Shown piece after piece: positions 29,585 to 41,622 of a DNA stretch of 64,000 bases; positions within the stretch are counted from its first letter, which is position 1, and the number at the start of each line of letters is the position of its first letter. A program made the position numbers and the translations under genes. Source of the DNA: Bacteroidales bacterium. Lineage in GTDB: Bacteria; Bacteroidota; Bacteroidia; Bacteroidales; BM520. The notes under the pieces are model-generated. The model was given only the letters and a program-made list of their open reading frames with translations, was not told the origin of the DNA and ran no database searches. Location: the NCBI GenBank assembly GCA_050953245.1, contig JBMNMG010000006.1:2821-66820 (forward strand), read 5' to 3'.

Positions 29585-30015
29585 CGGATATCACCAATAG
29601 CTTAATATGAAAATATCATCATATTAGTCCTACACATTTTTTTGTTTATTAATTTCTAAGTGTTGATACTCTCTAATACTTGTACTTTCTTTTAGAGATT
29701 CGCTTAGGTGTGCCATCTTCATTGAAATCTGTAGATTGTATCAAATTTCCTTGGTTGTCATATTTATACTCAGATTGAATTTTATAATCAAGTGATTCGT
29801 CTGAATTATAACGGTTTTCTTCAATTAAATTTCCGATATTATCGTAAACATATTTTGTTTTATTTGCATAACCTGAATTAATGCTGCTGCTTTCTTCTAT
29901 TAAGTTTCCTTTATTATCATATACAAATTTTTCTTTATATTCATAATTATAATGGTCCCCTTTTTTAGGACAACAAAATTAAAAACTTAACGTATAAATA
30001 ATTAAAAGTTGTCTT

Positions 30016-30309
30016 ATGGAAAGAAGTTCAAGAAAAAAGTTTAGCTCCTCTTTTAAATCAAAAGTGGCATTAGAAGCTGTTAAGGGGTTAAAAACGATTA
30101 ACGAGATTGCTTCCGAGTACGGATTACAGCCGTCTCAAGTATCAGAATGGAAGCGAGTTCTTATAGAAAATATGCCGGAACTGTTTGAGAGGAAAAGTCA
30201 GTCTAGGGAGAAACATTTTGAAAAAGAGAAGGAGGAATTATTGAAAATCATTGGCAGTTTAAAGGTTGATAATGATTTCTATAAAAAAAAATTAAAACCC
30301 TATCTGTAA
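30016..30309 (+). CDS. IS3 OrfA (HTH)
   Basis: RKKFSSSFKSKVALEA...TINEIASEYGLQPSQVSEWK; A9 run at 30283-30291. Confidence 0.9.
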   Translation: MERSSRKKFSSSFKSKVALEAVKGLKTINEIASEYGLQPSQVSEWKRVLIENMPELFERKSQSREKHFEKEKEELLKIIGSLKVDNDFYKKKLKPYL

Positions 30310-30323
30310 AAGAGCGCAGAGCG

Positions 30324-31226
30324 ATGGTGGATCCCAAGGACCCAACATTAAGCATTGTTAAGCAATGTATTTTGTTATTTATTAGTCGATCAGGGGTTTA
30401 TTATCAGCCTGCTAGTGAGAGCGAGTTAGATTTACAGATCATGTTAGAGATAGATAAATATTTCACTTTATATCCATTTTATGGGACTAGGAGAATGTCA
30501 GACCATTTAAAGGAAAAGGGCTATCATGTGGGAAGAAAAGCGATAAGATCCTATTACATTAAGATGGGAATAGGGGCAATTTATCCCAAAAAGAAGCCCA
30601 ATACAAGTGAACCTAATAAAGAACATAAGGTTTATTCATATCTATTAAGAAACTTGAAAATAGAGCGTAAAAATCATGTTTGGGCAACAGATATTACATT
30701 CATTCCAATGCCCAAAGGACACATGTACCTTTGCGCGATTATAGACCTGTATTCTCGATATGTCCTTTCCTGGAATATTTCAAACACCATGGATACAGCA
30801 CTTTGTATAGGAGTCTTAAAGGATGCACTACAACATCACGGTAAACCAAAAATATTCAATTCTGATCAAGGGAGTCAATTTACTTCTCCTAACTTCACAA
30901 ATATTCTTGAAGATCAAGGTGTTATGATTAGCATGGACTCTGTAGGAAGAGCTTTGGATAATATATTTATTGAAAGATTGTGGAGAAGCGTTAAATACGA
31001 ATGTATTTACCTCAATGCATTTGAAAATGGAGTTCAACTATACCAGGGATTAGAGCAATATTTTAAGTTTTATAATTGCGAAAGGAAACACCAATCACTT
31101 GATTATCAAACACCTGAAAAATTATTTAAAAAAATGTGTAAAACACTTGAAAGTTTCAAAAAGATCTCTAACTTTTGCAAAGTTAAAGATTTAAGTTCTT
31201 TGAAAAATAAAGTATTAACAAATTAA
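30324..31226 (+). CDS. IS3 OrfB DDE transposase (probably OrfAB via -1 frameshift)
   Basis: WATDITF, NSDQGSQF, DNIFIERLWRSVKYE; the -1 frame is open from the A9 run. Confidence 0.92.
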   Translation: MVDPKDPTLSIVKQCILLFISRSGVYYQPASESELDLQIMLEIDKYFTLYPFYGTRRMSDHLKEKGYHVGRKAIRSYYIKMGIGAIYPKKKPNTSEPNKEHKVYSYLLRNLKIERKNHVWATDITFIPMPKGHMYLCAIIDLYSRYVLSWNISNTMDTALCIGVLKDALQHHGKPKIFNSDQGSQFTSPNFTNILEDQGVMISMDSVGRALDNIFIERLWRSVKYECIYLNAFENGVQLYQGLEQYFKFYNCERKHQSLDYQTPEKLFKKMCKTLESFKKISNFCKVKDLSSLKNKVLTN

Positions 31227-32376
31227 AAAAACTGTCCTAATAAAAGGGGACACTTAATATTATCTGAATCACTCCTGCTTACTTCTACTATATTACCTTG
31301 ATTGTCATACAATTTTTTTTCTTTATATTTAATTAATCCCTCTGAATCATACGTGTTTTTTTCTATTAAATTTCCTTTATCATCATATGAATATTTCACT
31401 ATATACTCAGGAGAACCATTTGAATCATATTTGCTATTTTCTATTAAATTTCCGTTATTATCGTATACATTTTTCTCTTTATACTTAATTAATCCTTCTG
31501 AATCATATGTGTTTTTTTCTATTAAATTTCCTTTATCATCATACGAAGATTTCTCTATATACTTAAGAGATCCCTCTGAATCATATGTTATATATTCTAT
31601 TACATTACCTTGATTGTCGTACTCATAAATCGCAATAGATTTATTAGAAAAATCAATGATTCCTTGTATTAAATTTCCCTTATTATCGTATGCATATCTT
31701 GTTCTTTCATTAGTTCCATCATGACAATGATATCTTTTTTCTAATAAATTTCCATTGTTATCGTAAACTAATTTCCATCTCTCTTCAGCAAATTCATAAT
31801 CATCATCTGCTGCACAAATTCTTTCTTCTATTAATTTTCCGTTATTATTGTACGTTAATTTATGTTTATAACCAAATGATCCATCTAGAGAACATTTGAC
31901 TTTTTCTATTAAATTTCCTTTTTCATCGTATACAAATTTCCATATCTCTCCATCTGATAAATCATCATCAGATGAAAACGACAACACGATCTTTTTTCTA
32001 TTAAATTTCCTTTATTATCATACGCATATTTATCTATAGACTCAAACGACCATCTGACTCATACGTGCTTTCTTCTATTAATCTTCCTTTATTTATAACC
32101 ATTTTTTTATATTTTTCTGAATTAATACTATAATGAATAGTATTTTTCATTTTACTATCTCTACAATTTAAGCTTTTGTATCATATTTATTTTGTGCGTA
32201 GGTTTTGCTATGCCTTTTAGGTTTTGTTTTGCCGGCCATTTTACTCCTTTTATTTCATCTAAAATAAAGTTTCTATCCCTAGCTTGTATTATATTTATAT
32301 ATAACAAATATTTCCAAAAATTTATAAAAAATTTCCGTTTCCTGCTTGTATTATTGAAGATTATTACTTTATTTTG

Positions 32377-33159
32377 TTATGAAGAAGTAATAATGTTATT
32401 GTCTAATAAAGCTTCAATAATAGGATTAAAGATGTCAGTTTCAAAAGTTTTTCTGCTGGAGAAATGCCAACAGTCTAAATATGGATAACTTTTGCCTGAA
32501 GGAGTATGTAGATATTGAAAACACACATCCTTTCCATTGTACATCTTTTGAGAACTAAAAGTACCTAAATATTTCATTCTTTCTCCATGATTCATTCCTA
32601 TAATGATGCCTGGTGATAGTAAGTCTATCTCTTTTGCAAAGAAATTTACTTGGGATTTGCTACTGGCTTCTAAAAATGTTTGTATAAGATCATTGTCAGC
32701 AGGCCATTCACCACTTTCATTTGAAAATTTTGATAAGTTCATAAAAGCATTGCTTATACCATTCGGTTGGGCAAATTCTGAAATAAAGTCACTGGCATAT
32801 GGAATATTATTCCACTTATATTCGCCATGCTCAATAGCATAAGTTATATAAAGCATAGTATAATGAAACTTATACCGGTTTAAAGTTATACCTCCTATAT
32901 TATCTTCTAAGTAAGCTTCATATAAAAGCTCCATGTAGTTAGCTCCACCAATCTCTAATGCTTCCCGTCCAATAAACAATATCTTTCTTTTTTGATAGGT
33001 ATAGTATGGATAAAATCCATCCTTTACAAATAATTGTTGAACATCGAACGGTTTATCTTTGAATTGTAATTTCAAAAATGATAACCATTCATCGTTTAAT
33101 TTTTCAATCTGATGTTTTAAATTTTGCTCAGACTCCGGATAAATTAATTGTTTTTTCAT
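32377..33159 (-). CDS. Uracil-DNA-glycosylase-superfamily-like protein
   Basis: KILFIGRE (motif A-like), AFMNLSK, EIDLLSPGIIIG, WHFSSR (HPS-like). Confidence 0.6.
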   Translation of the reverse strand: MKKQLIYPESEQNLKHQIEKLNDEWLSFLKLQFKDKPFDVQQLFVKDGFYPYYTYQKRKILFIGREALEIGGANYMELLYEAYLEDNIGGITLNRYKFHYTMLYITYAIEHGEYKWNNIPYASDFISEFAQPNGISNAFMNLSKFSNESGEWPADNDLIQTFLEASSKSQVNFFAKEIDLLSPGIIIGMNHGERMKYLGTFSSQKMYNGKDVCFQYLHTPSGKSYPYLDCWHFSSRKTFETDIFNPIIEALLDNNIITSS

Positions 33160-33255
33160 TGTTTTAGTATTTTAATGTTAATATTTAGTTTCTAATCTTT
33201 TAAAACGTTAATAAAAAGTTGTCTTTTACAACCAAATTTATTTTCAATGCTAAAT

Positions 33256-33813
33256 TTAGCTATATTCGTATTTTCTTTCAGTGATTAGACCAATGGTTCC
33301 ATCAGCATTGAAGTATGTATAACGTATCCAATTTCCTTGGTTGTCATACTTATACTCGCGTTTACATTCAAGTGTACCCTCTAACTTATAAAAATTTTTT
33401 TCTATTAAATTTTCTTTATTATCGTACACATTTTTCTTATAAAGTGTCCCATTCGAATTATATACTCTTTCTTCTACTAACTTCCCTTTATTATTGTAAG
33501 TATATTCGTGTTTATAAAGCAACGAAGGTGGGCCATATACACCATAATCCCATTCTTCTACTAACCTCCCTTCATTATTGTATATGTATTTTGTATGAAC
33601 CCAGGGTGATCCAAGTTCAAACGAAAAGAATTCATCTACTATATTACCTTTATTATCGTACAAATTTTTTTCAATAAGTGTTGTTCCCCACCAATACCTC
33701 ATATCTTTTACTAAAATTCCTTTGTTATTGTACGTATATATAGTTTTTTCCTCAAGTGATCCATCTGGGTAAAAATCGCTTTCTTCTATTAATTTTCCTT
33801 TATTTTTAACCAT
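33256..33813 (-). CDS. YD-like repeat protein unit B (no signal peptide)
   Basis: Repeats YNNKGxLVEE; C-terminal cap YKYDNQGNWIRY...TERKYEY. Confidence 0.7.
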   Translation of the reverse strand: MVKNKGKLIEESDFYPDGSLEEKTIYTYNNKGILVKDMRYWWGTTLIEKNLYDNKGNIVDEFFSFELGSPWVHTKYIYNNEGRLVEEWDYGVYGPPSLLYKHEYTYNNKGKLVEERVYNSNGTLYKKNVYDNKENLIEKNFYKLEGTLECKREYKYDNQGNWIRYTYFNADGTIGLITERKYEYS

Positions 33814-33901
33814 TGCCTTTTGTTTTTTAATATTTTGAATTTATACTATTATTAATTTTTATTTTTAAGATACCATCTTCACTGAATACAATATTCAATA
33901 A

Positions 33902-34927
33902 TCAATCACCTTGATTGTCATATTTATTTTTATATCTACGATAAATTGATCCATCTGAATAATAGTGGCTTTCTTCTACCATTTTCCCTTTATTACTATA
34001 CTCATATTTCACTCTTGTGCCTTCAGATTCTTTTAAATTATACTTGAATTTTTCCACTAACTTTCCATTATTATTGTATATTTTTAGAAGAATGATTGTT
34101 CCGTATAAATCATAACTTAATTCTCCGATTACATTTCCTTTATTATCGTACACACTTTTCTCAATAAGTGATCCGTCCTTATCATACACACTTTTTTCTA
34201 CTAACTTTCCTTTATTATTGTACACAAATTTCTCTTTATTCGCAAGTGATCCATCCGAATCAAACCTGCTTATTTTTAATAAATTTCTTTTATTATCATA
34301 CGTTTTACTAAAATTAAGTGTTCCATCAGAATCGAAGTGATTTTCTTTTATTAAATTCCCTTCATTATCATATACATATTTCTCTTCATAAAAAAGTACT
34401 CCCTCTGAATCGTAAACGCTTTTTCCCAGTAATTTTCCTTCATCATCGTAAGTATGTAGTTTTTGATTATTAAGTGTACCATCCGGACCGTACTCTCTTT
34501 CTTCCAGTAATTGCCCGTTATCGTCGTACGTATATTTCTCTTGATACCAAAGAGATCCATCTGAATAATAATAACCTGTTCCTAGTAATTTTCCGTTATC
34601 GTCGTACTCATATTTTTCTTTATAAGCAAATGATCTATCTAAATCATATTTGCATTCTTCTAATAAATTTCCTTTGTTGTAATTCATGGCTTTTGTTTTT
34701 AGAGTTTTTCTTAAATTATTTAATTCTTATATATTAATATTTTTTCTCATTTTACTATTTCTCCAATCCTTGTTTTTGCTACATATACATTTTGTGTGTA
34801 GGTTTTACTTTGCCTTTTAGGCTTTATTCTTGGGTGTCATTTTACTCCTTATTTGTGTAACAATTCATAGAAAGAGTAATAACTATTAAGATTGACAAGG
34901 TAACAAGCAAATAGTATCTTTTTTCAT
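33902..34927 (-). pseudogene. YD-like repeat protein unit A; decayed leader, repeat ORF 33902-34687 open
   Basis: ATG 34927 MKKIL, then broken frames LLVTLSILIVITLSMNC, NDTQE*SLKGKVK, YTQNVY...GEIVK*; about 10 repeats follow; TGA stands where unit B has TGG in the cap. Confidence 0.75.
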
Positions 34928-34968
34928 AGTTGTATTAAAATTATATTGTTAGTAATATCATTTCAATA

Positions 34969-35008
34969 CAAAGATATATCTAGCATATGCAGAACAGGGG
35001 CATATGTT
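34969..35008 (-). promoter_or_regulatory. -7 promoter (TATCTTTG) with CATATG-N11-CATATG box
   Basis: Box at 34984-35006, 7 bp from the -7 element at 34969-34976; matches the site upstream of the WYL gene. Confidence 0.7.
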
Positions 35009-35046
35009 AAATAATTTTTCTAAAATAATTTTCTGCTGGTGATTTT

Positions 35047-35559
35047 TTATACGATAGGATCTATGCAATAGTTTCTTCGCATACATTTTTTACAATGACG
35101 ACCTATCCACACTTCATCAAAATGATTCATTGCTCCATTTACAATTTCAGGTTCGTCGGTCAAAATGCCTGCTTCAAAATTACGTCTATTTTCACTTTTC
35201 ATTCCAATTCCGGCACCAGTAAGGTTTGCACTGCCGATGTATACTTCCTTACAGTCAAAAATAAGCATCTTAAAATGAACGCGTACACAAAGCAATCGTT
35301 CTAAACTGTCGAAGAGAACAGGGTATCGGTCAAAGTCTTTTCGAAAGGTAGGACCCGGCTCCTTTGCGTGAATTAGTCGAACTTCCACACCACGCTGAGC
35401 AAGCTGGGCAATGATGGCAAGAAAAGGCTTTTTCTCTTTGCCAAAATCTACATATAGGTCTTTTATGTCGGCTGTGCCTATCCAAAGTGTTCGTTTTACG
35501 GTCTTAACCCGTGACAGAACTTCCTTGTAATGATCTATGTCGGAGATATATTTCAGCAT
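35047..35559 (-). CDS. Single-domain phospholipase D family protein (Nuc-like nuclease)
   Basis: HxK(x4)D(x6)GSxN motif: HFKMLIFDCKEVYIGSANLT; NFEAGI; C-terminal CxxC...C. Confidence 0.85.
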   Translation of the reverse strand: MLKYISDIDHYKEVLSRVKTVKRTLWIGTADIKDLYVDFGKEKKPFLAIIAQLAQRGVEVRLIHAKEPGPTFRKDFDRYPVLFDSLERLLCVRVHFKMLIFDCKEVYIGSANLTGAGIGMKSENRRNFEAGILTDEPEIVNGAMNHFDEVWIGRHCKKCMRRNYCIDPIV

Positions 35560-35773
35560 ATTATTTTTTTATCAAAAATTAAGTTTGACTAATTGATGAA
35601 ACTAATATTTTTAAGGTCAACTCAATATTTGTTTTTAACGAGTTGATTGTGAGGGAGTACTGTATAGAAGTCTACAAAATTTTCTTCCCATTAATATTCC
35701 AAATTTTATCGAGTATTTTGTTATAACTTCTGACGTACTTATTGCATCTGCTGCTGACGTATGGATATGTCAG

Positions 35774-36265
35774 TTATAGTATTTTTCTTGCAATCCATGC
35801 ACATGCTTCTGCATCGGCAAGAGCATGATGATGATTTTTTAAATGATAGCCACAAGCTGCTGCCACTGTTTGAAGTTGATGATTTTCCAATTCAGGAAGA
35901 ACTTTGCGGGCAGCACGGAGGGTATCGTAAAATTCGTATTCGGGATAATACATCCGATAAACGCTGAAAACAGCCCTTAAGCAACTTTCGTCAAATGATT
36001 TGTTGTGAGCTACAAGTGGTAATTTCCATATCAATGGTTCTACTTTTTGCCATACTTCGGGAAAAATAGGACCATTGATGGTGTCGTAGTAATCCATGCC
36101 ATGTACCTGCGTACACCTATAATAATAGTAATTTGGCACGGGTCGAATTGGTGAGTAAAAATAATCTACAATTTTTCCTTCACGTACTATAACGATGCCT
36201 ACTGAGCATACGGATGAACGATTATAGTTAGCTGTTTCAAAATCTATTGCTGCAAAATTTTCCAT
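35774..36265 (-). CDS. DEDDh 3'-5' exonuclease (DnaQ-like)
   Basis: AIDFET, AHNKSFD, DTL, HHALADA. Confidence 0.92.
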   Translation of the reverse strand: MENFAAIDFETANYNRSSVCSVGIVIVREGKIVDYFYSPIRPVPNYYYYRCTQVHGMDYYDTINGPIFPEVWQKVEPLIWKLPLVAHNKSFDESCLRAVFSVYRMYYPEYEFYDTLRAARKVLPELENHQLQTVAAACGYHLKNHHHALADAEACAWIARKIL

Positions 36266-36266
36266 T

Positions 36267-37172
36267 TTATTCTTTATATTTATTCCACATACGTTTAACT
36301 ATTCCTGCAATTGTCTCTCTTAGCCAAGCAGGCTCTAACACTTCTATGTCTTCTCCGTTCGAGAGAATCTCTTGATAAAAATCGAATTGGGGACAGATAC
36401 GAAGCGAAAAAATGCTGTATTCATCATTCCGCTCTATTTCTTTTTGTGTGTCGTGGAGCGGAAGAGATCGAAGATAATTGGCCTGATCTGCCGACACTTT
36501 CAGTTTTACGGTTTCTAATTTACTATCTGAATTAACAATAATACCATAGTAGTTGTAGAAGAAACTTTCTGCGTCAAAATCCTCAGGTATATTAAATGTT
36601 TCACCGTCGAGCTTCTGAATATTACTGATGCGGTCGAGGGCGTAGATCATCATCTTATTGTAATATGGATTGAAAGTTGGCATATACCAGCGTTGTTTAA
36701 ACAACTTTATGCAGTATGGATGAACTGTAAATGTGTAGTTATCTTCCTTCCAGTAACTTTGATATGTAATGCTGATTTGAGTATTTGTTTTCATCGCATC
36801 AAGAGTAGTTACCAGATTGTTATGTCCGGATGGAATATCTTCAAGCAAGATCCTGTTTTTGAGTGACTGATTGTCCAAAAGTAAATTGCTTACGGATACT
36901 GAATTCAGGATCCAGTTACGAATACTGTTACGCTTTAACTCTTCGGGGTTCTCGATGTAGTAATGATACCCGCCTTTGCGTTCACATTCGATATTTAGAT
37001 TGAACATTTCCTCTGCTGCAATTCTCCATTTATGGAAAGTGCGCGGTGGTATAGGTTGATTATCCATACCTTGTTCAAGCCACTTTTCGTTGATTTCATC
37101 AAGCGTGATGCGACCTGCCTTATATATGGTTTCAACTAACCAAACGTATTTATTAATAAGATTTATAGCCAT
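36267..37172 (-). CDS. WYL-domain transcriptional regulator (wHTH-WYL-WCX)
   Basis: KYVWLVETI...PRTFHKWR HTH; HPYCIKLFKQRWYM, YALDRI; YLRSLPLHDTQ, EVLEPAWLRE. Confidence 0.92.
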   Translation of the reverse strand: MAINLINKYVWLVETIYKAGRITLDEINEKWLEQGMDNQPIPPRTFHKWRIAAEEMFNLNIECERKGGYHYYIENPEELKRNSIRNWILNSVSVSNLLLDNQSLKNRILLEDIPSGHNNLVTTLDAMKTNTQISITYQSYWKEDNYTFTVHPYCIKLFKQRWYMPTFNPYYNKMMIYALDRISNIQKLDGETFNIPEDFDAESFFYNYYGIIVNSDSKLETVKLKVSADQANYLRSLPLHDTQKEIERNDEYSIFSLRICPQFDFYQEILSNGEDIEVLEPAWLRETIAGIVKRMWNKYKE

Positions 37173-37189
37173 ATCTTTTAAGTTTTATG

Positions 37190-37229
37190 CAAATATAATA
37201 CTAACATATGTAATATTGGGGCGTATGTT
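37190..37229 (-). promoter_or_regulatory. -7 promoter (TATATTTG) with CATATG-N11-CGTATG box; putative WYL autoregulatory site
   Basis: Box at 37205-37227, 7 bp from the -7 element at 37190-37197. Confidence 0.7.
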
Positions 37230-37375
37230 TTGATTTTTTTATTTTTTATTGAATTTTAGAATTCATGTACTCAATAATGCTGCTTTATTTCAGCAAAAGG
37301 ATTGAAATAATCAGAAAGAAATCATTGCGAAGTTCCATTGCAGAATTCCATTAAACTTGCAAAATAGGTACAAAA

Positions 37376-38650
37376 TTATTTTTTGTATTTGGCAGACTTC
37401 TTAGTTATAATAGAACTAAATGTTGGCTTGTTAAAGTCTATTAAACTATTAAATATTAAAGGGATACAAATGAAAGTTACCATAAGCGAGCGATATGTAT
37501 ACCAAAAATGTATATATGAATGGTTAGCTAATACAAAATACCAAACCAAAGGTATAAGTCCTATTAATACATACATTAATGATGTTTTTAGTCCTTTTTT
37601 GTTAAAGTATAATGTTGCAATTATTATTACAAAAATAGTTACAATTAATATATAGTTAGAATCAAACAATTCTAAATTTATTTTAATAGCATCAATTCTA
37701 CTAAAATCATTATTAACACTTCCGCTTGATCTTATTAAGACACTATTAAATCCATTTTTAATAGCATTATATGATGTAAATATATTTGTTATTACCCATT
37801 TACTAAACCAAGTAAAAGCATATCCCATTGCCCATAGTATAGATGAGGAAAAAATTTTTTTTATTCCTAAAAAAATTGGTTCATCATTTTGTTTGTTTTG
37901 ATTTACCATAAAATAAACAATAAGTGGAATGCATAATGTAAGAATTGGTGTAGTAAGCAAATCAAAATAAGAAGTTAAAGAACCAAAAATGAAAAACAAA
38001 AGCAATATTTGTTTATGGTTTTCAGTAGGTTTACATAAAAATATTGAAAAAATTAATGTTAACATTAATACAGGGAAAAACTGTATGGAAAATTGACTTA
38101 TAAATATATTTGTCGAAAAAAATCCTAAGAAAAACAATAATGTTGAGAGTAGATTAGTCCTTTGATATAATTTTGCACCTAAGAAAATAATCATTAATGA
38201 TGATATTAAATAAAGAAGTACCCTAATCTTATCGTAATTACCAATTAACAATAGATATCTTACTAAAAACGTATTTCCGTGCCAATATCGAGGATAGTAC
38301 AATATGGGTTCAAAATCTTGTTCTGTAACTAAATATTGTAACGATAATGTTGAAGACATATTGTGTTTTGTAGAACGAGGAACTAATAGCACCGATTCTA
38401 TTAAGTTTTTCCTATCAGAATTATAAGCTTGATTTAAAATTAATGCATCGGTAAAATTATCTAATCGAAATTTGTGGTCGTTAATAATTACTCTAGGATA
38501 TTCTTTTGCCTCCACTAATGTTTCAACAGAATTAGCAATGTTTTTTCTGATAATTTTATTGGGAAGCATGCATGAAAAAATTGCAAACAATAAGTAAGAT
38601 CCTATTAATATAAAAAAAACATAAATATATTTTAAGAAAGTTTTTTTCAT
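37376..38650 (-). CDS. Multi-TM protein, probable GT-C/GtrC-like glycosyltransferase
   Basis: DNFTD, YPRYWHG, YFDLLTTP, NHSYIHFWYTYR; downstream of a GtrB-like gene. Confidence 0.6.
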   Translation of the reverse strand: MKKTFLKYIYVFFILIGSYLLFAIFSCMLPNKIIRKNIANSVETLVEAKEYPRVIINDHKFRLDNFTDALILNQAYNSDRKNLIESVLLVPRSTKHNMSSTLSLQYLVTEQDFEPILYYPRYWHGNTFLVRYLLLIGNYDKIRVLLYLISSLMIIFLGAKLYQRTNLLSTLLFFLGFFSTNIFISQFSIQFFPVLMLTLIFSIFLCKPTENHKQILLLFFIFGSLTSYFDLLTTPILTLCIPLIVYFMVNQNKQNDEPIFLGIKKIFSSSILWAMGYAFTWFSKWVITNIFTSYNAIKNGFNSVLIRSSGSVNNDFSRIDAIKINLELFDSNYILIVTIFVIIIATLYFNKKGLKTSLMYVLIGLIPLVWYFVLANHSYIHFWYTYRSLMVTFICIPLIFNSLIDFNKPTFSSIITKKSAKYKK

Positions 38651-38668
38651 GTTATATAGTAATTTTGT

Positions 38669-39592
38669 TTAATTGTTTTTAATATCGAAATCAATAACCT
38701 TTAGCTCGAAGTTTTTTCTATCAATAGATACTAAAACATCTAAAAATAAACCTGTAAAAAATGATATTAAGGCTGCTAATGCTAAAAATAATGACACAAA
38801 AAGTGTAGGGAAACGAGGCACTAAGCCTGTGTTAAAATAATCTATTAAAATAGGAATAAATAATATTATTGAGACGATAAATAAAAGTAAGGCAAAATAT
38901 CCAAAAAATATTAATGGACGATATGTTTTAAATAACTTAAAGATGGTGTTTAATACTTTAAAGCCATCTGAAAAGGTATTTAATTTAGATTCACTTCCAT
39001 CTGGTCTGTCTTGGTATTCTATAGGAACTTCTACGATAGTAAATCTTTTGTCTAAAGCATGAATCGTCATTTCAGTTTCTATTTCAAAATTTGGTGACAT
39101 AACAGGAAATAATTTAACAAAACGTTTACTAAATGCTCTATAACCTGTCATTATATCATGGATATCTGTTTCCCAAAAATTCCGAATTAATCCTCTAACC
39201 AATTTATTCCCGCTATTATGAAACGGTCTTTTGTTTTCATCAAAATATGTAGATGATAATCTATCTCCAATAACCATGTCTGCATCTTCTTGAATGAGTT
39301 TATTTACAAGTTCCGGAGCATGTTTTGCGGGGTAAGTGTCATCACCATCTATCATAAGATAACAATCAGCATTTATTTCCCTAAACATCCGTCTTATAAC
39401 ATTACCTTTTCCTTGTTTTCGTTCATAACGAACTATAGCACCGGCTTCTTTAGCAATCCGAGATGTTTCGTCAGTTGAATTATTATCATAAACATAAATA
39501 TCTGCTAAAGGTAAAACTTCTTTAAAATCTTTTACTACTTTTGATATGGTTTGAGCTTCATTATAACAAGGAATAAGTACTGCTATTTTCAT
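38669..39592 (-). CDS. GT2 bactoprenol glycosyltransferase (GtrB/DPM1-like)
   Basis: IPCYNEA, DNNSTD, QGKG, DGDDTY, DIMTGYRAF, two C-terminal TMs. Confidence 0.88.
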   Translation of the reverse strand: MKIAVLIPCYNEAQTISKVVKDFKEVLPLADIYVYDNNSTDETSRIAKEAGAIVRYERKQGKGNVIRRMFREINADCYLMIDGDDTYPAKHAPELVNKLIQEDADMVIGDRLSSTYFDENKRPFHNSGNKLVRGLIRNFWETDIHDIMTGYRAFSKRFVKLFPVMSPNFEIETEMTIHALDKRFTIVEVPIEYQDRPDGSESKLNTFSDGFKVLNTIFKLFKTYRPLIFFGYFALLLFIVSIILFIPILIDYFNTGLVPRFPTLFVSLFLALAALISFFTGLFLDVLVSIDRKNFELKVIDFDIKNN

Positions 39593-39683
39593 AAATATTA
39601 ATAATTAATGAGTTTTTTGCAAAGATAGTTTTTAATTTTGATTTGTCAAAAACATTAGGAAAAGATTTTCAGGTATATTATAT

Positions 39684-39711
39684 AAAACTCCTATATATTT
39701 ATAGGAGTTTT
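39684..39711 (-). terminator. Terminator after the GH110 gene
   Basis: AAAACTCCTATA/TATAGGAGTTTT stem. Confidence 0.7.
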
Positions 39712-41622
39712 TTATTTAAGAGTTATAGTTATCTTTTCAGAGTTTTCTATATAAATATCCTCATACATTTCATCATCAAAATGATTGTCTTCAATAGATA
39801 CATTTTTCACTCTTTCGAAATAAAATTTATTGTTATTCCAATGAAACGGTAAAAAATCATCATTATGAATAATAGTATTGCCTCTAAATATCAAATTGGA
39901 AACGGATTTAGCATAAAGAATAGGACAATCAAAGGTGTTGAATAAATTATCTTCAATAATGATATTAGAGTGAAAATATGTTTTTTGATTATCTAAATCG
40001 AGAATTTCGGGATATATGGAAATAATTGCATTTGTAAATTGATAGTTGGTTGTTAGTGCATTAATAAAAGTATTGTTTTTTATTATTACGTTTTTACAAG
40101 CTCCAGTTTCGTACCAACCGTTACAATCGCCGCATAATAATATTGCAGTTCCGTGTGTATGGTCAAAAGTATTATTCATGCAGATTACAGTTTTGGGAGT
40201 ACTAAATAATGCACCTCTGGCTCTATTGTTTTTAATAATATTGTTTGTAAAAATAACTTTAGGTGTCCATGTCAGATTTTCAATACCTATATTTTCCGTA
40301 TCCAAATTAAAAGGTAAGTTCTCATTAAATGAAATTTTAAAAATTTTTACTCCATTTAATGAAGAAGTGTCGTATGGAATAATGGATTTAATAGTAGTTG
40401 TAAAAGTTGTACTATCATTTTTTTGAATTAAATCCATCGTTTTAGAATAAATAAACTGTACAGTATCATTTACATCGCCCCATTTAAAATCGTAAGTTTG
40501 ATAATGCATATACCCTGCTAAAACAGTGTTTGAGTTAACTTGTTCAAGTATTTTTAAATAAGTTCCGTGTACGTTTATTGCATCGTCAGCCATATTTTCA
40601 TAAGAACCGTTCTCGGATAGAATTGTACCTTTGCAACCCGAAAAATGTGTGGCATCTGCTTGTGTCGTAAAATAACGCGGATCAGATTTATCCTTGAACC
40701 CAACTTTAAAGTTGTTTAAAGTAATATTCTCACTCATTTGGGCAATTAATCCCATACCTTCTGCATAATGAATGTTGATGTCCTTAAAAGTTGTATTTAA
40801 ACATTCACTTACAAAAATGGCAGGAGTTGGCCTGTAATATGTTCTTAGCACAAAACGTTCAAACTCTGATGTTTCATTTATTTGAGACCAATTGGATATT
40901 TTAAGAATATTATCTTTTATTTCTTCAATTGTTTGCGGATTGAATTCTATATCTCGTCGTTTGTAAGTTAGATGTTTGTTTTCAGAGAATGCCATGCAAA
41001 CATATGGAGTAATGTCAAAATTTTCACCGTGGAAAATTAATTTATTATTACTAACTGTATAGTTATTAGGTGGAAATATTTCAGCTATAATCTCCGAATT
41101 GTCCTTTTTCTCTATGATATTTATCTGTCTTAGTGCAGGAATTGCAGCATCAATGGAAAAGTTCTTCAACTCGATATTCCTGCAATTAACAAGAGAAATC
41201 GGAATCATTCTTCCGTGAAATACAAATTCAGCACCATTTGCATCAATTGTAAGATTATTTAAGTTTTCAAAAGCAAAACAGACATGTCTTTTATCCAAGT
41301 GATCGTGATTAGAGATAAAATATTGGCGAATAAAAGTCGAATCTAAATAATAGTCGTATTTCACACTATCAAAAACAATAGTAAGATTGGAAGTGTCAGC
41401 TCTTTGATGTAAGTAATCAATTAATCTTCGTGCAGCAATACTGAAATTTATTTGTGTTGAAGGTTTTCCGTTTTCAATAATTCTAATAGTATCGCTTTCG
41501 CAAACAAAATCAGAAAACTTAAGAGTGTTTTTGTTAGGATGGCAACCAAATATTAAAAGGCAAAATAACAAAGTAAACAATAAAAGTATTGTTTTTATAT
41601 GTGGAAATAGCCTTTTCATCAA
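39712..41622 (-). CDS. Alpha-1,3-galactosidase (GH110) lipoprotein
   Basis: Lipobox IFGC; YFISNHD, RPTPAIF, TTQADATHFSGCKG, DDAINVHG, NRARG, GWYETG. Confidence 0.85.
   Translation of the reverse strand: MMKRLFPHIKTILLLFTLLFCLLIFGCHPNKNTLKFSDFVCESDTIRIIENGKPSTQINFSIAARRLIDYLHQRADTSNLTIVFDSVKYDYYLDSTFIRQYFISNHDHLDKRHVCFAFENLNNLTIDANGAEFVFHGRMIPISLVNCRNIELKNFSIDAAIPALRQINIIEKKDNSEIIAEIFPPNNYTVSNNKLIFHGENFDITPYVCMAFSENKHLTYKRRDIEFNPQTIEEIKDNILKISNWSQINETSEFERFVLRTYYRPTPAIFVSECLNTTFKDINIHYAEGMGLIAQMSENITLNNFKVGFKDKSDPRYFTTQADATHFSGCKGTILSENGSYENMADDAINVHGTYLKILEQVNSNTVLAGYMHYQTYDFKWGDVNDTVQFIYSKTMDLIQKNDSTTFTTTIKSIIPYDTSSLNGVKIFKISFNENLPFNLDTENIGIENLTWTPKVIFTNNIIKNNRARGALFSTPKTVICMNNTFDHTHGTAILLCGDCNGWYETGACKNVIIKNNTFINALTTNYQFTNAIISIYPEILDLDNQKTYFHSNIIIEDNLFNTFDCPILYAKSVSNLIFRGNTIIHNDDFLPFHWNNNKFYFERVKNVSIEDNHFDDEMYEDIYIENSEKITITLK

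Follow-up and report, generated by a model that had tools for sequence, protein, structure and literature searches.

In this report, we describe a predicted operator in a stretch of 64,000 nucleotides from a Bacteroidales bacterium (assembly GCA_050953245.1, contig JBMNMG010000006.1, positions 2,821 to 66,820), which is referred to throughout as the window. Two copies of a 27-bp dyad, each placed next to a Bacteroidota −7 promoter box, were found to flank a cassette of three minus-strand genes that encode a winged helix-turn-helix (wHTH)-WYL-WCX regulator, a DnaQ-like DEDDh exonuclease, and a PLD nuclease. Sequence comparison indicates that the two dyads are very probably operators of the adjacent WYL factor. 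Activation of the DriD type, exerted from a fixed position by the −7 box, is judged to be slightly likelier than repression of the BrxR/CapW type, and is itself held with somewhat less than even confidence.

Two dyads and their promoter boxes

The first copy of the dyad, TAGCATATGCAGAACAGGGGCATATGTT, occupies 34981–35008 and the second, TAACATATGTAATATTGGGGCGTATGTT, occupies 37202–37229, as read directly from the plus strand. The box next to copy 1 is CAAAGATA at 34969–34976, which reads TATCTTTG on the minus strand, and the box next to copy 2 is CAAATATA at 37190–37197, which reads TATATTTG on the minus strand. Both boxes have the form CAAAnnTA on the plus strand and TAnnTTTG on the minus strand, and both lie on the lower-coordinate side of their dyad copy. 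The gap from the box to the 28-mer is 4 nt, and that from the box to the CATATG hexamer is 7 nt. These offsets are equal in the two copies, and the position lock is therefore taken to be real. The presence of two copies at an equal distance from a minus-strand TAnnTTTG had been proposed in an earlier reading of the sequence alone (the sequence-only reading) and is confirmed here.

On the gene strand, each element consists of the 27-bp dyad, then 5 nt, and then the −7 box. Predicted operator O1 reads AACATACGCCCCAATATTACATATGTT, AGTAT, and TATATTTG, followed by the WYL ATG after 17 nt, and predicted operator O2 reads AACATATGCCCCTGTTCTGCATATGCT, AGATA, and TATCTTTG. The coordinates are collected in Table 1. 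The promoter consensus of Bacteroidota has been described as TAnnTTTG at −7 with a weak TTTG near −33 (PMC7366714, from the part of the paper available to us). The two copies form direct repeats around the WYL-exonuclease-PLD cassette, a feature that is absent from the sequence-only reading. Between O1 and O2 the half-sites and the CCCC are kept and the 7-nt center differs at five of the seven positions, a pattern that fits constraint better than recent duplication.

The core CATATG-N11-CRTATG gives three strand-matches at the two sites in the window, compared with an expectation of 0.02 (standard deviation 0.20), and three or more matches were obtained in 0 of 100 shuffles. The full 28-mer pattern, with up to three mismatches, recovers only these two sites in the window (expectation 0.02; at least two in 0 of 100 shuffles). 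The genome of the host (2,135,709 bp in nine contigs, 97% complete) was also scanned. The only other core, at C2:725098, lacks both the GGGG and a box. When two core mismatches were allowed, the combination of core and box occurred genome-wide only at the two window sites. Thirteen places in the genome lie within two mismatches of the family consensus described below, and a box accompanies only two of them, again the window sites. The sequence-only reading had named an equal frequency at random positions as the result that would speak against it; the genome scan found the dyad with its box at the two window sites only. A sigma-70 promoter scan gave counts equal to those of shuffled sequences, and the sigma-70 model does not apply to Bacteroidota.

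The element in other Bacteroidales

Two sets of relatives were compared. Set 1 was obtained by a protein-guided scan of metagenome contigs, with 80 loci kept of 251 relatives (50–74% identity; 691,526 bp). Set 2 was limited to one genome per species, with 80 loci kept of at least 560 relatives, and was drawn from metagenome-assembled genomes of Prevotellaceae, Paludibacteraceae, Muribaculaceae, Bacteroidaceae, Coprobacter, Mediterranea, and Paraprevotella, together with one isolate. Sites were counted with the family pattern AACnTnTGC-N9-GCAnAnGTT (the 27-bp dyad, with up to four mismatches) accompanied by a T[AT]nnTTTG box 3–6 nt downstream. This pattern was derived from set 1 and then used for the counts in both sets. 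The close relatives in GTDB are at most 47% identical, and their upstream regions were partly informative.

A shared layout was found across the 160 loci, in which the dyad, 5 nt, and the box precede WYL, recur behind PLD, and also stand ahead of further genes of the island. The 80 loci of set 1 contain 118 sites with dyad and box, 67 of which are directly upstream of WYL. In set 2, a site was found within 130 nt upstream of 46 of the 79 testable WYL genes. Dyad and box are separated by exactly 5 nt at 114 of the 118 sites in set 1, including all 45 sites with two or fewer mismatches, and at 130 of the 150 sites in set 2. The length of this gap is kept and its own letters are not conserved. 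The half-site letters of the WYL-upstream sites vary by clade, with the forms AACTTATGCC...CACAAGTT, AAGATATGCC...CATATCTT, AACCTATGC...GCATAGGTT, and AACCTCTGCCAC...TGGCG.

The genes of the cassette recur with the sites. The exonuclease is beside WYL in 75 of 80 loci in set 1 and 62 of 80 in set 2, and in set 1 it is about 61–84% identical even where WYL is only about 52% identical. In the same set, 21 of the 80 loci contain PLD, and 0–5 kb of variable genes lie between WYL, the exonuclease, and PLD. A dyad with box follows PLD at 6 of the 11 set 1 loci that extend at least 200 nt beyond it, and after 10 of the 17 PLD genes in set 2. A search for second copies that used each locus's own site (up to four mismatches) misses most of these downstream sites, which are recovered by the family pattern and by reading the sequence after PLD. 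The cargo between exonuclease and PLD in relatives includes GmrSD_N pairs, PDDEXK_4 nucleases of the PD-(D/E)XK type, and a UDG-like protein. The post-PLD site precedes many different genes, and the genes found after sites encode the DNA polymerase III (Pol III) alpha subunit (four loci), ZapA-like, bpMoxR, AAA ATPase, and HAD_SAK_2 proteins, and proteins of no known family. A PHROGs search with 10 of the unknown island proteins returned only two matches, both of unknown function. From these comparisons, a recurrent island frame can be outlined that would consist of WYL, the DnaQ-like exonuclease, variable defense cargo, PLD, and the next promoter. Five set 2 genomes were scanned in full and gave 5–9 matches each, compared with 0 for a pattern reversed as a control. 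Most of these matches fall into one or two clusters, and the regulon is therefore local to the islands and not genome-wide.

The symmetry of the dyad was determined with 91 distinct 40-mers. Arm cells were complementary in 74.4% of cases in register, compared with 25.6–43.6% when the register was slid. None of 500 shuffles attained the covariation score of 0.218 for these sites. This result is subject to three caveats: the search pattern itself included the remaining arm positions, the scoring accepted G-T as a pair, and sites that are related do not count as independent. Positions 4/24 and 6/22, left as wildcards by the search pattern, are occupied by CG, TA, AT, and GC pairs. Of the two halves, the left one (promoter-distal) hardly varies (T5, T7, G8, C9), and the right one is degenerate at WYL promoters. 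The helix RTFHKWRIAAEEMF, found in the window protein and the 64–74% clade, pairs with AAC(A/T)T(A/G)TGCC sites, and the helix RTFDNWRYVIWDMF of the 52% clade pairs with AACCTCTGCCAC sites. The half-sites change jointly with the predicted recognition helix, with dyad symmetry kept. The claim of the sequence-only reading that the dyad is the operator of this WYL protein therefore gains support both from the sites upstream of WYL orthologues and from the covariation of the half-sites, and the assignment is predicted on these grounds.

It is most improbable that another, unlinked DNA-binding protein recognizes the dyad and that the WYL protein acts elsewhere. An extra helix-turn-helix gene does stand beside WYL in some loci, for example a 96-aa Xre-like open reading frame (ORF) in L091, and the host genome contains a second WYL paralogue (C8:79141–79839). 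However, no DNA-binding gene other than WYL is a constant neighbor of the sites, the sites of the host genome occur only at the cassette, and the recognition helix tracks the site type. The clustering of sites in the five other genomes also argues against this explanation.

The repeats could alternatively have a structural or recombinational role in a mobile or modular island, and not primarily be operators, an explanation that we regard as improbable. They would then be hairpin terminators or insulators that close each unit, or repeat junctions for cassette exchange, of which the copy upstream of WYL would be a degenerate relic. The arrangement of the copies as direct repeats around the cassette and the highly variable gene content between and after the sites agree with this explanation, as do the hairpins of −21 to −25 kcal/mol, followed by a T-rich tail, at the post-PLD sites of relatives. 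The hairpin of O2 is modest (−10.2 kcal/mol, z −3.75). A weak hint in the same direction comes from loose ends of metagenome contigs at 35007, 35010, and 37223, which are the edges of the copies. Against a structural role, O1 has no stable hairpin (−1.4 kcal/mol, z −0.15), hairpins are also absent from the sites before WYL in the 52% clade, and neither window copy passes a terminator scan. A number of sites are located between divergently oriented genes, site type and recognition helix co-vary, and no integrase or recombinase was found as a constant neighbor in the loci of the relatives. The sites are followed by the box, an A-rich leader, and an ATG, and this order, with the exact 5-nt lock to the box, is a property of promoters. 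The structural explanation is also compatible with operator function, since sites after genes could do both jobs. We conclude that the dyads are in all probability promoter-bound operators and that those located after genes may also terminate transcription.

Several findings weigh against the operator model. A site that fits the pattern is absent from the 130 nt upstream of 33 of the 79 WYL genes in set 2; in some of these loci (e.g., L052) WYL follows another, site-bearing gene. The outer arms can differ between sites of one locus, so that the binding of all sites by one protein is an assumption. The strong hairpins and T-rich tails after PLD in relatives mean that these sites may also, or mainly, terminate transcription. 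In addition, the second promoter of the window has an atypical leader of 281 nt.

The metagenome contigs with loose ends match the window up to the edges of the copies (X19 and X20 at 35007, X17 at 35010, X15 at 37223) and then continue into unrelated sequence. They come from three runs, and each match is to a single low-depth contig at 85% likeness. X15 has a depth spike of 78 in the bin 37073–37339. The loose ends may represent variants that recombine at the dyads or other organisms that share short pieces. Contig joints that skip parts of the region have sides 20–34 nt long at 85% likeness and were not counted as deletions.

Other arrangements were observed among the relatives. Divergent genes at L051:1406–1458, L052:4604–4643, and L056:4606–4658 are separated by a single palindrome that is accompanied on either strand by a −7-type box at a distance of exactly 5 nt, and the two promoters appear to share it as their operator. 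In 10 of the 80 set 2 loci (L182:308–6474, L148:8001–15456, L145, L151, L155, L158, L160, L161, L166, and L179), a very long Pol III alpha gene is located about 0.1–3 kb after the WYL-exonuclease pair. The L182 ORF of 1559 aa combines PHP, pol3 alpha, finger, HHH, and OB domains with an RNase_T exonuclease domain fused at the N-terminus. All five genomes checked also contain a second Pol III alpha gene, which is shorter (open frame of 927–986 aa). The host genome contains one dnaE, on contig C5, unlinked to the cassette. A tandem module (exonuclease-...-WYL-exonuclease) occurs at L072:2373–5554, and a WYL gene together with a WYL C-terminal fragment occurs at L106:6001–8124. Several set 2 loci have a PLD gene and a site upstream of WYL. 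The duplicates and the PLD-site units upstream of WYL suggest arrays of consecutive islands.

Cassette genes and flanking regions

The features of the region are listed in Table 1. The exonuclease matches the PADLOC models PDC-S48 (1e-24) and DEDDh (2.4e-22), and the epsilon-like NCBIfam model PRK06195 at 3.6e-39, which is under that model's cut-off. The PLD nuclease matches DrmC in PADLOC (7.4e-8) and in NCBIfam (1.5e-9, under the model's cut-off). A DrmC-like PLD nuclease and a PDC-S48-like DEDDh exonuclease thus place genes of phage-defense type next to the regulator in the window. A hairpin with a 9-bp stem (GCTGACGTATGG ATATGTCAGT region) is found at 35753–35774, where it overlaps the stop region of the exonuclease gene; the terminator scan flags it on the plus strand only, opposite to the genes.

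Table 1. Positions in the window of the predicted operators, promoter boxes, cassette genes, and downstream features.
Feature	Position	Strand	Remarks
Predicted operator O1 (27-bp dyad, WYL promoter)	37203–37229	−	Gene-strand AACATACGCCCCAATATTACATATGTT; promoter-proximal half imperfect
Bacteroidota −7 box TATATTTG, WYL promoter	37190–37197	−	5 nt downstream of O1, 17 nt upstream of ATG
wHTH-WYL-WCX transcription factor, 301 aa	36267–37172	−	Pfam WYL and WCX, AF2 model, Foldseek
DnaQ-like DEDDh 3'-5' exonuclease, 163 aa	35774–36265	−	Starts 2 nt after WYL stop; Pfam RNase_T 2.2e-16
Exonuclease-PLD gap, 214 bp	35560–35773	−	Empty here; 1–5 kb variable cargo at same slot in relatives
PLD-family nuclease (DrmC/NucT-like), 170 aa	35047–35559	−	Pfam PLDc_2 2.3e-13
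Predicted operator O2 (27-bp dyad)	34982–35008	−	Gene-strand AACATATGCCCCTGTTCTGCATATGCT; more symmetric copy; 39 nt after PLD stop
−7 box TATCTTTG	34969–34976	−	5 nt downstream of O2
AT-rich stretch, 281 nt, second promoter to first YD ORF	34688–34968	−	ORFs all ≤22 aa; no Rfam match
YD/RHS-repeat protein A, 261 aa	33902–34687	−	Pfam RHS_repeat 4.7e-8; NCBIfam YD_repeat_2x
YD-repeat protein B, 185 aa	33256–33813	−	Same strand as protein A
ORF of no known family, 260 aa	32377–33159	−	Same strand, downstream of YD units A/B

The leader of the second promoter was searched for remnants of a gene by tblastn with 50 site-following proteins of the relatives, and none was found (best E value of 0.04 in 30000–36000). 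An Rfam search of 32000–38000 returned only two sub-threshold matches to miRNA models. YD protein A is presumed to be the first gene of the second transcription unit. Its relatives are distant (at most 35% identical), and one of them is named YwqK-like by one source. No YD counterparts were found in the set 1 loci. At least four YD/RHS-repeat ORFs lie on the minus strand of 29712–34687 (33902–34687, 33256–33813, 31223–31987, and a fragment near 29712–29939), with the 260-aa ORF among them. They are 43–47% identical to one another in parts, and their N-termini are not signal-like.

The sequence-only reading had placed a surface repeat protein under a nucleic-acid stress sensor. The surface location is not supported. 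The N-termini of the YD-like ORFs (MNYNKGNLLEE... and MVKNKGKLIEE...) do not resemble signal peptides when judged by eye. The WYL regulon that was proposed with it survives as two adjacent promoters that are real. The YD gene is a weak anchor for it, located 281 nt after the box, and the post-PLD site precedes many genes in relatives. The YD target is incidental to this genome and is not part of a conserved regulon.

Upstream of the cassette, the minus strand of 37376–41622 encodes a 424-aa ORF of no family, a family-2 glycosyltransferase, and a beta-helix/GLAA-B-like protein, and it looks like a variable region of the polysaccharide type. No syntenic counterparts of the flanks were found in seven genomes of the same genus; the 424-aa gene has a match in one of the seven (37% identity, other contig context) and the YD genes in two (28–29%). 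The second WYL-family paralogue of the genome is distant (25–31% identical over residues 1–285), and no family-type dyad with box was found near it in the genome scans.

Regulatory sign and comparison with known WYL regulators

The WYL protein matches Pfam WYL PF13280 (1.3e-12, residues 121–186) and WCX PF25583 (1.1e-13, residues 220–295), both above the cut-offs, and no Pfam match was obtained for its N-terminus. The AlphaFold2 (AF2) model has a predicted local distance difference test (pLDDT) score of 74.9 and consists of an N-terminal winged helix, a linker, the WYL domain, and the WCX domain. The N-terminal block (pLDDT 73–90) contains helices at residues 5–19, 24–33, and 43–57 and a two-strand wing at 61–73. 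Linker residues 80–112 are poorly modeled (pLDDT 38–43). A homodimer model scored 0.71, compared with 0.00 for the best of three controls; dimers of relatives have been solved, and the score may reflect likeness to them. Of proteins solved as same-chain pairs, 20 of 30 attain the same mark, as does 1 of 23 proteins solved as single chains. At least 88% of contacts agree between runs, with a partner pLDDT of 81 or higher.

A phmmer search with the single WYL protein against the PDB gave no match, and BrxR and CapW were not found at an E value of 0.01 or better. A profile search of the PDB returned PafBC at 7.2e-12, DriD at 2e-10, CapW at 0.25, and BrxR at 0.41. Foldseek ranked DriD first (6.8e-13), followed by PafBC, CapW (1.4e-7), and BrxR (2.3e-7), with full-length alignments to DriD, CapW, and BrxR. 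The identity to DriD is only 17–20%. Sequence similarity to BrxR and CapW is thus not significant, and the similarity in fold is present but below that to DriD and PafBC.

An activator is slightly favored because the profile and the fold are nearest to DriD and PafBC, because the spacing follows the rule of DriD and the site has the position of that of SiwR, and because palindromic targets have weak boxes. Many of the non-WYL target sites combine a perfect palindrome with a sub-consensus TTnnTTTG box, whereas WYL promoters combine a consensus box with a degenerate proximal half-site. In the proposed mechanism, a dimer of the WYL protein would bind the 27-bp dyad at about −18 to −44 of each promoter. 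The promoters concerned would be that of the WYL-exonuclease(-PLD) operon and the one after PLD. Both would be coupled to the ligand of the WYL domain, and the net effect would be induction of both units. By analogy, we infer that this ligand may be single-stranded DNA (ssDNA) or another nucleic acid and that the system would be induced by an ssDNA-type signal, such as ssDNA from phage attack or DNA damage. The role of effector would fall to the PLD nuclease and, in relatives, to the exonuclease-PLD cargo. By removing the ssDNA ligand, the co-transcribed DnaQ-like exonuclease could reset the switch.

The same operator and protein may also function with the opposite sign, with the WYL factor as a repressor of the BrxR/CapW type, a possibility that we take seriously and consider on balance somewhat doubtful. 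In this mechanism, a ligand-free dimer over −18 to −44 would block RNA polymerase, and ssDNA on the WYL domain would part the wHTH domains and free the DNA. The weaker O1 would then provide leaky negative autoregulation, and the more symmetric O2 would provide tighter downstream control. The statements on published systems made here and below are limited to the parts of the cited papers that were available. BrxR and CapW have been described as repressors that regulate their own genes, sense ssDNA, and are released by it (PMC11662680, PMC9122601, and the preprint PMC13622015). In those sources, the defense-linked WYL factors (BrxR, CapW, and WYL-DE) are all repressors, which counts against activation. 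Autoregulation from the same geometry is typical of repressors, and the consensus TAnnTTTG box of the WYL promoter should fire unaided. The defense-like cargo of relatives and the matches of the exonuclease and PLD to PADLOC models also fit a repressor, as do the 27-bp 11-5-11 geometry with two boxes per island, which are those of R-BOX1 and R-BOX2 of BrxR, and the ability of a single palindrome to serve two divergent promoters. The low confidence of the linker means, moreover, that a three-helix bundle like that of DriD cannot be assessed in the model.

Repression is opposed by a sequence and fold that are markedly nearer to DriD/PafBC than to CapW/BrxR. The 5-nt spacing is invariant despite turnover of the gap sequence, which is not needed for simple occlusion; in pEFER the BrxR box is downstream of the −10 element. 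With a strong palindrome and a weak box, the targets of a repressor would be doubly silent. In several relatives, moreover, the Pol III alpha gene follows such a site or is part of the WYL operon. The statement in the sequence-only reading that the position suits an activator is thus plausible in view of the kinship to DriD and PafBC and the DriD-like fixed spacing, and it is unproven, with the described defense-linked WYL factors being repressors.

A bolder interpretation is that the window contains a minimal, cargo-free copy of a Bacteroidales-wide module. In such a module, promoter arrays would be switched on by a DriD/PafBC-like WYL activator whose site is locked 5 nt ahead of the −7 box. 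The module would be paired with the DnaQ-like exonuclease and, in several families, be located upstream of or in an operon with Pol III alpha, with variable defense cargo and PLD inserted between them. Taken together, these propositions are rather unlikely.

Few pairs of a transcription factor and its operator have been defined in Bacteroidales, and none was found for their WYL proteins. A search of the literature on WYL/BrxR regulators, DEDDh exonucleases, and Bacteroidota defense islands found no description of this Bacteroidales module. The comparison yields an operator model (27-bp dyad, 5-nt gap, −7 box) and candidate specificity positions 4 and 6 of each half-site, which change with the recognition helix. 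The island frame could be used to mine new defense genes in Bacteroidales of the rumen, gut, and digesters. If the factor is an activator, this would be the first activator-type WYL control of defense islands and would broaden the view of WYL sensors in immunity. The LexA-like SOS regulators of other Bacteroidetes are reported to be absent from Bacteroidales (PMC8565304), and the WYL factor would be a candidate for an ssDNA- or DNA-damage-responsive regulator that these bacteria are not known to have.

BrxR is a dimeric wHTH-WYL-WCX protein. In pEFER it binds 11-bp (or 10-bp) inverted repeats with a 5-bp spacer, for a total of 27 bp as found here, at two boxes in one island (PMC9122601). These boxes, R-BOX1 and R-BOX2, serve its own gene and a position further on, and the defense islands are variable, which are likewise features of the loci in this report. 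The sequence similarity to BrxR is marginal by profile, and the Foldseek match ranks under DriD. R-BOX1 is downstream of the −10 element, whereas here a fixed 5-nt gap places the site on the upstream side of the −7 box. BrxR also comes from another host phylum with another promoter type. CapW has the same domain architecture, a palindrome in the promoter of its own locus, as found here by sequence comparison, and the ability to sense ssDNA; one studied operon also contains a 3'-5' exonuclease, Cap18 (PMC11662680). CapW differs in its weak profile match and in acting at the bidirectional promoter of a cyclic-oligonucleotide-based antiphage signaling system (CBASS), and a fixed-distance rule was not found in the available part of that paper.

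DriD of Caulobacter is a homodimer and the closest solved relative by fold. It is a WYL activator of an SOS-independent damage response, and in every one of its promoters the site overlaps the −35 position and keeps the same distance to the −10 element (PMC13004042). These promoters lack good −35 elements, and the regulon includes dnaG and recJ, which function in replication and repair. The same kind of fixed-distance rule is followed by the element described here relative to the −7 box, both in the relatives and at the two window copies. The DriD promoters are dispersed, whereas the sites here cluster in islands. The site in the driD-CCNA_03891/CCNA_01149 bidirectional promoter is oriented to drive that operon and not driD, whereas the promoter of the WYL gene itself has the geometry of a target promoter here. 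Among the actinobacterial activators, PafBC binds at −26 and the palindrome of SiwR spans −10 to −35 (PMC10693628 for SiwR), and therefore both act just upstream of −10. PafBC differs in being fused and heterodimer-like and in needing RNA polymerase to bind DNA, and neither PafBC nor SiwR is tied to defense islands. The mentions of Bacteroidetes in the SiwR paper, in the part available, refer to DinB proteins and not to WYL factors. The element described here has the overall geometry and island logic of BrxR and the position rule of DriD, together with a closer kinship to DriD and PafBC, and is a well-supported further case of the known pairing of a WYL factor with its operator.

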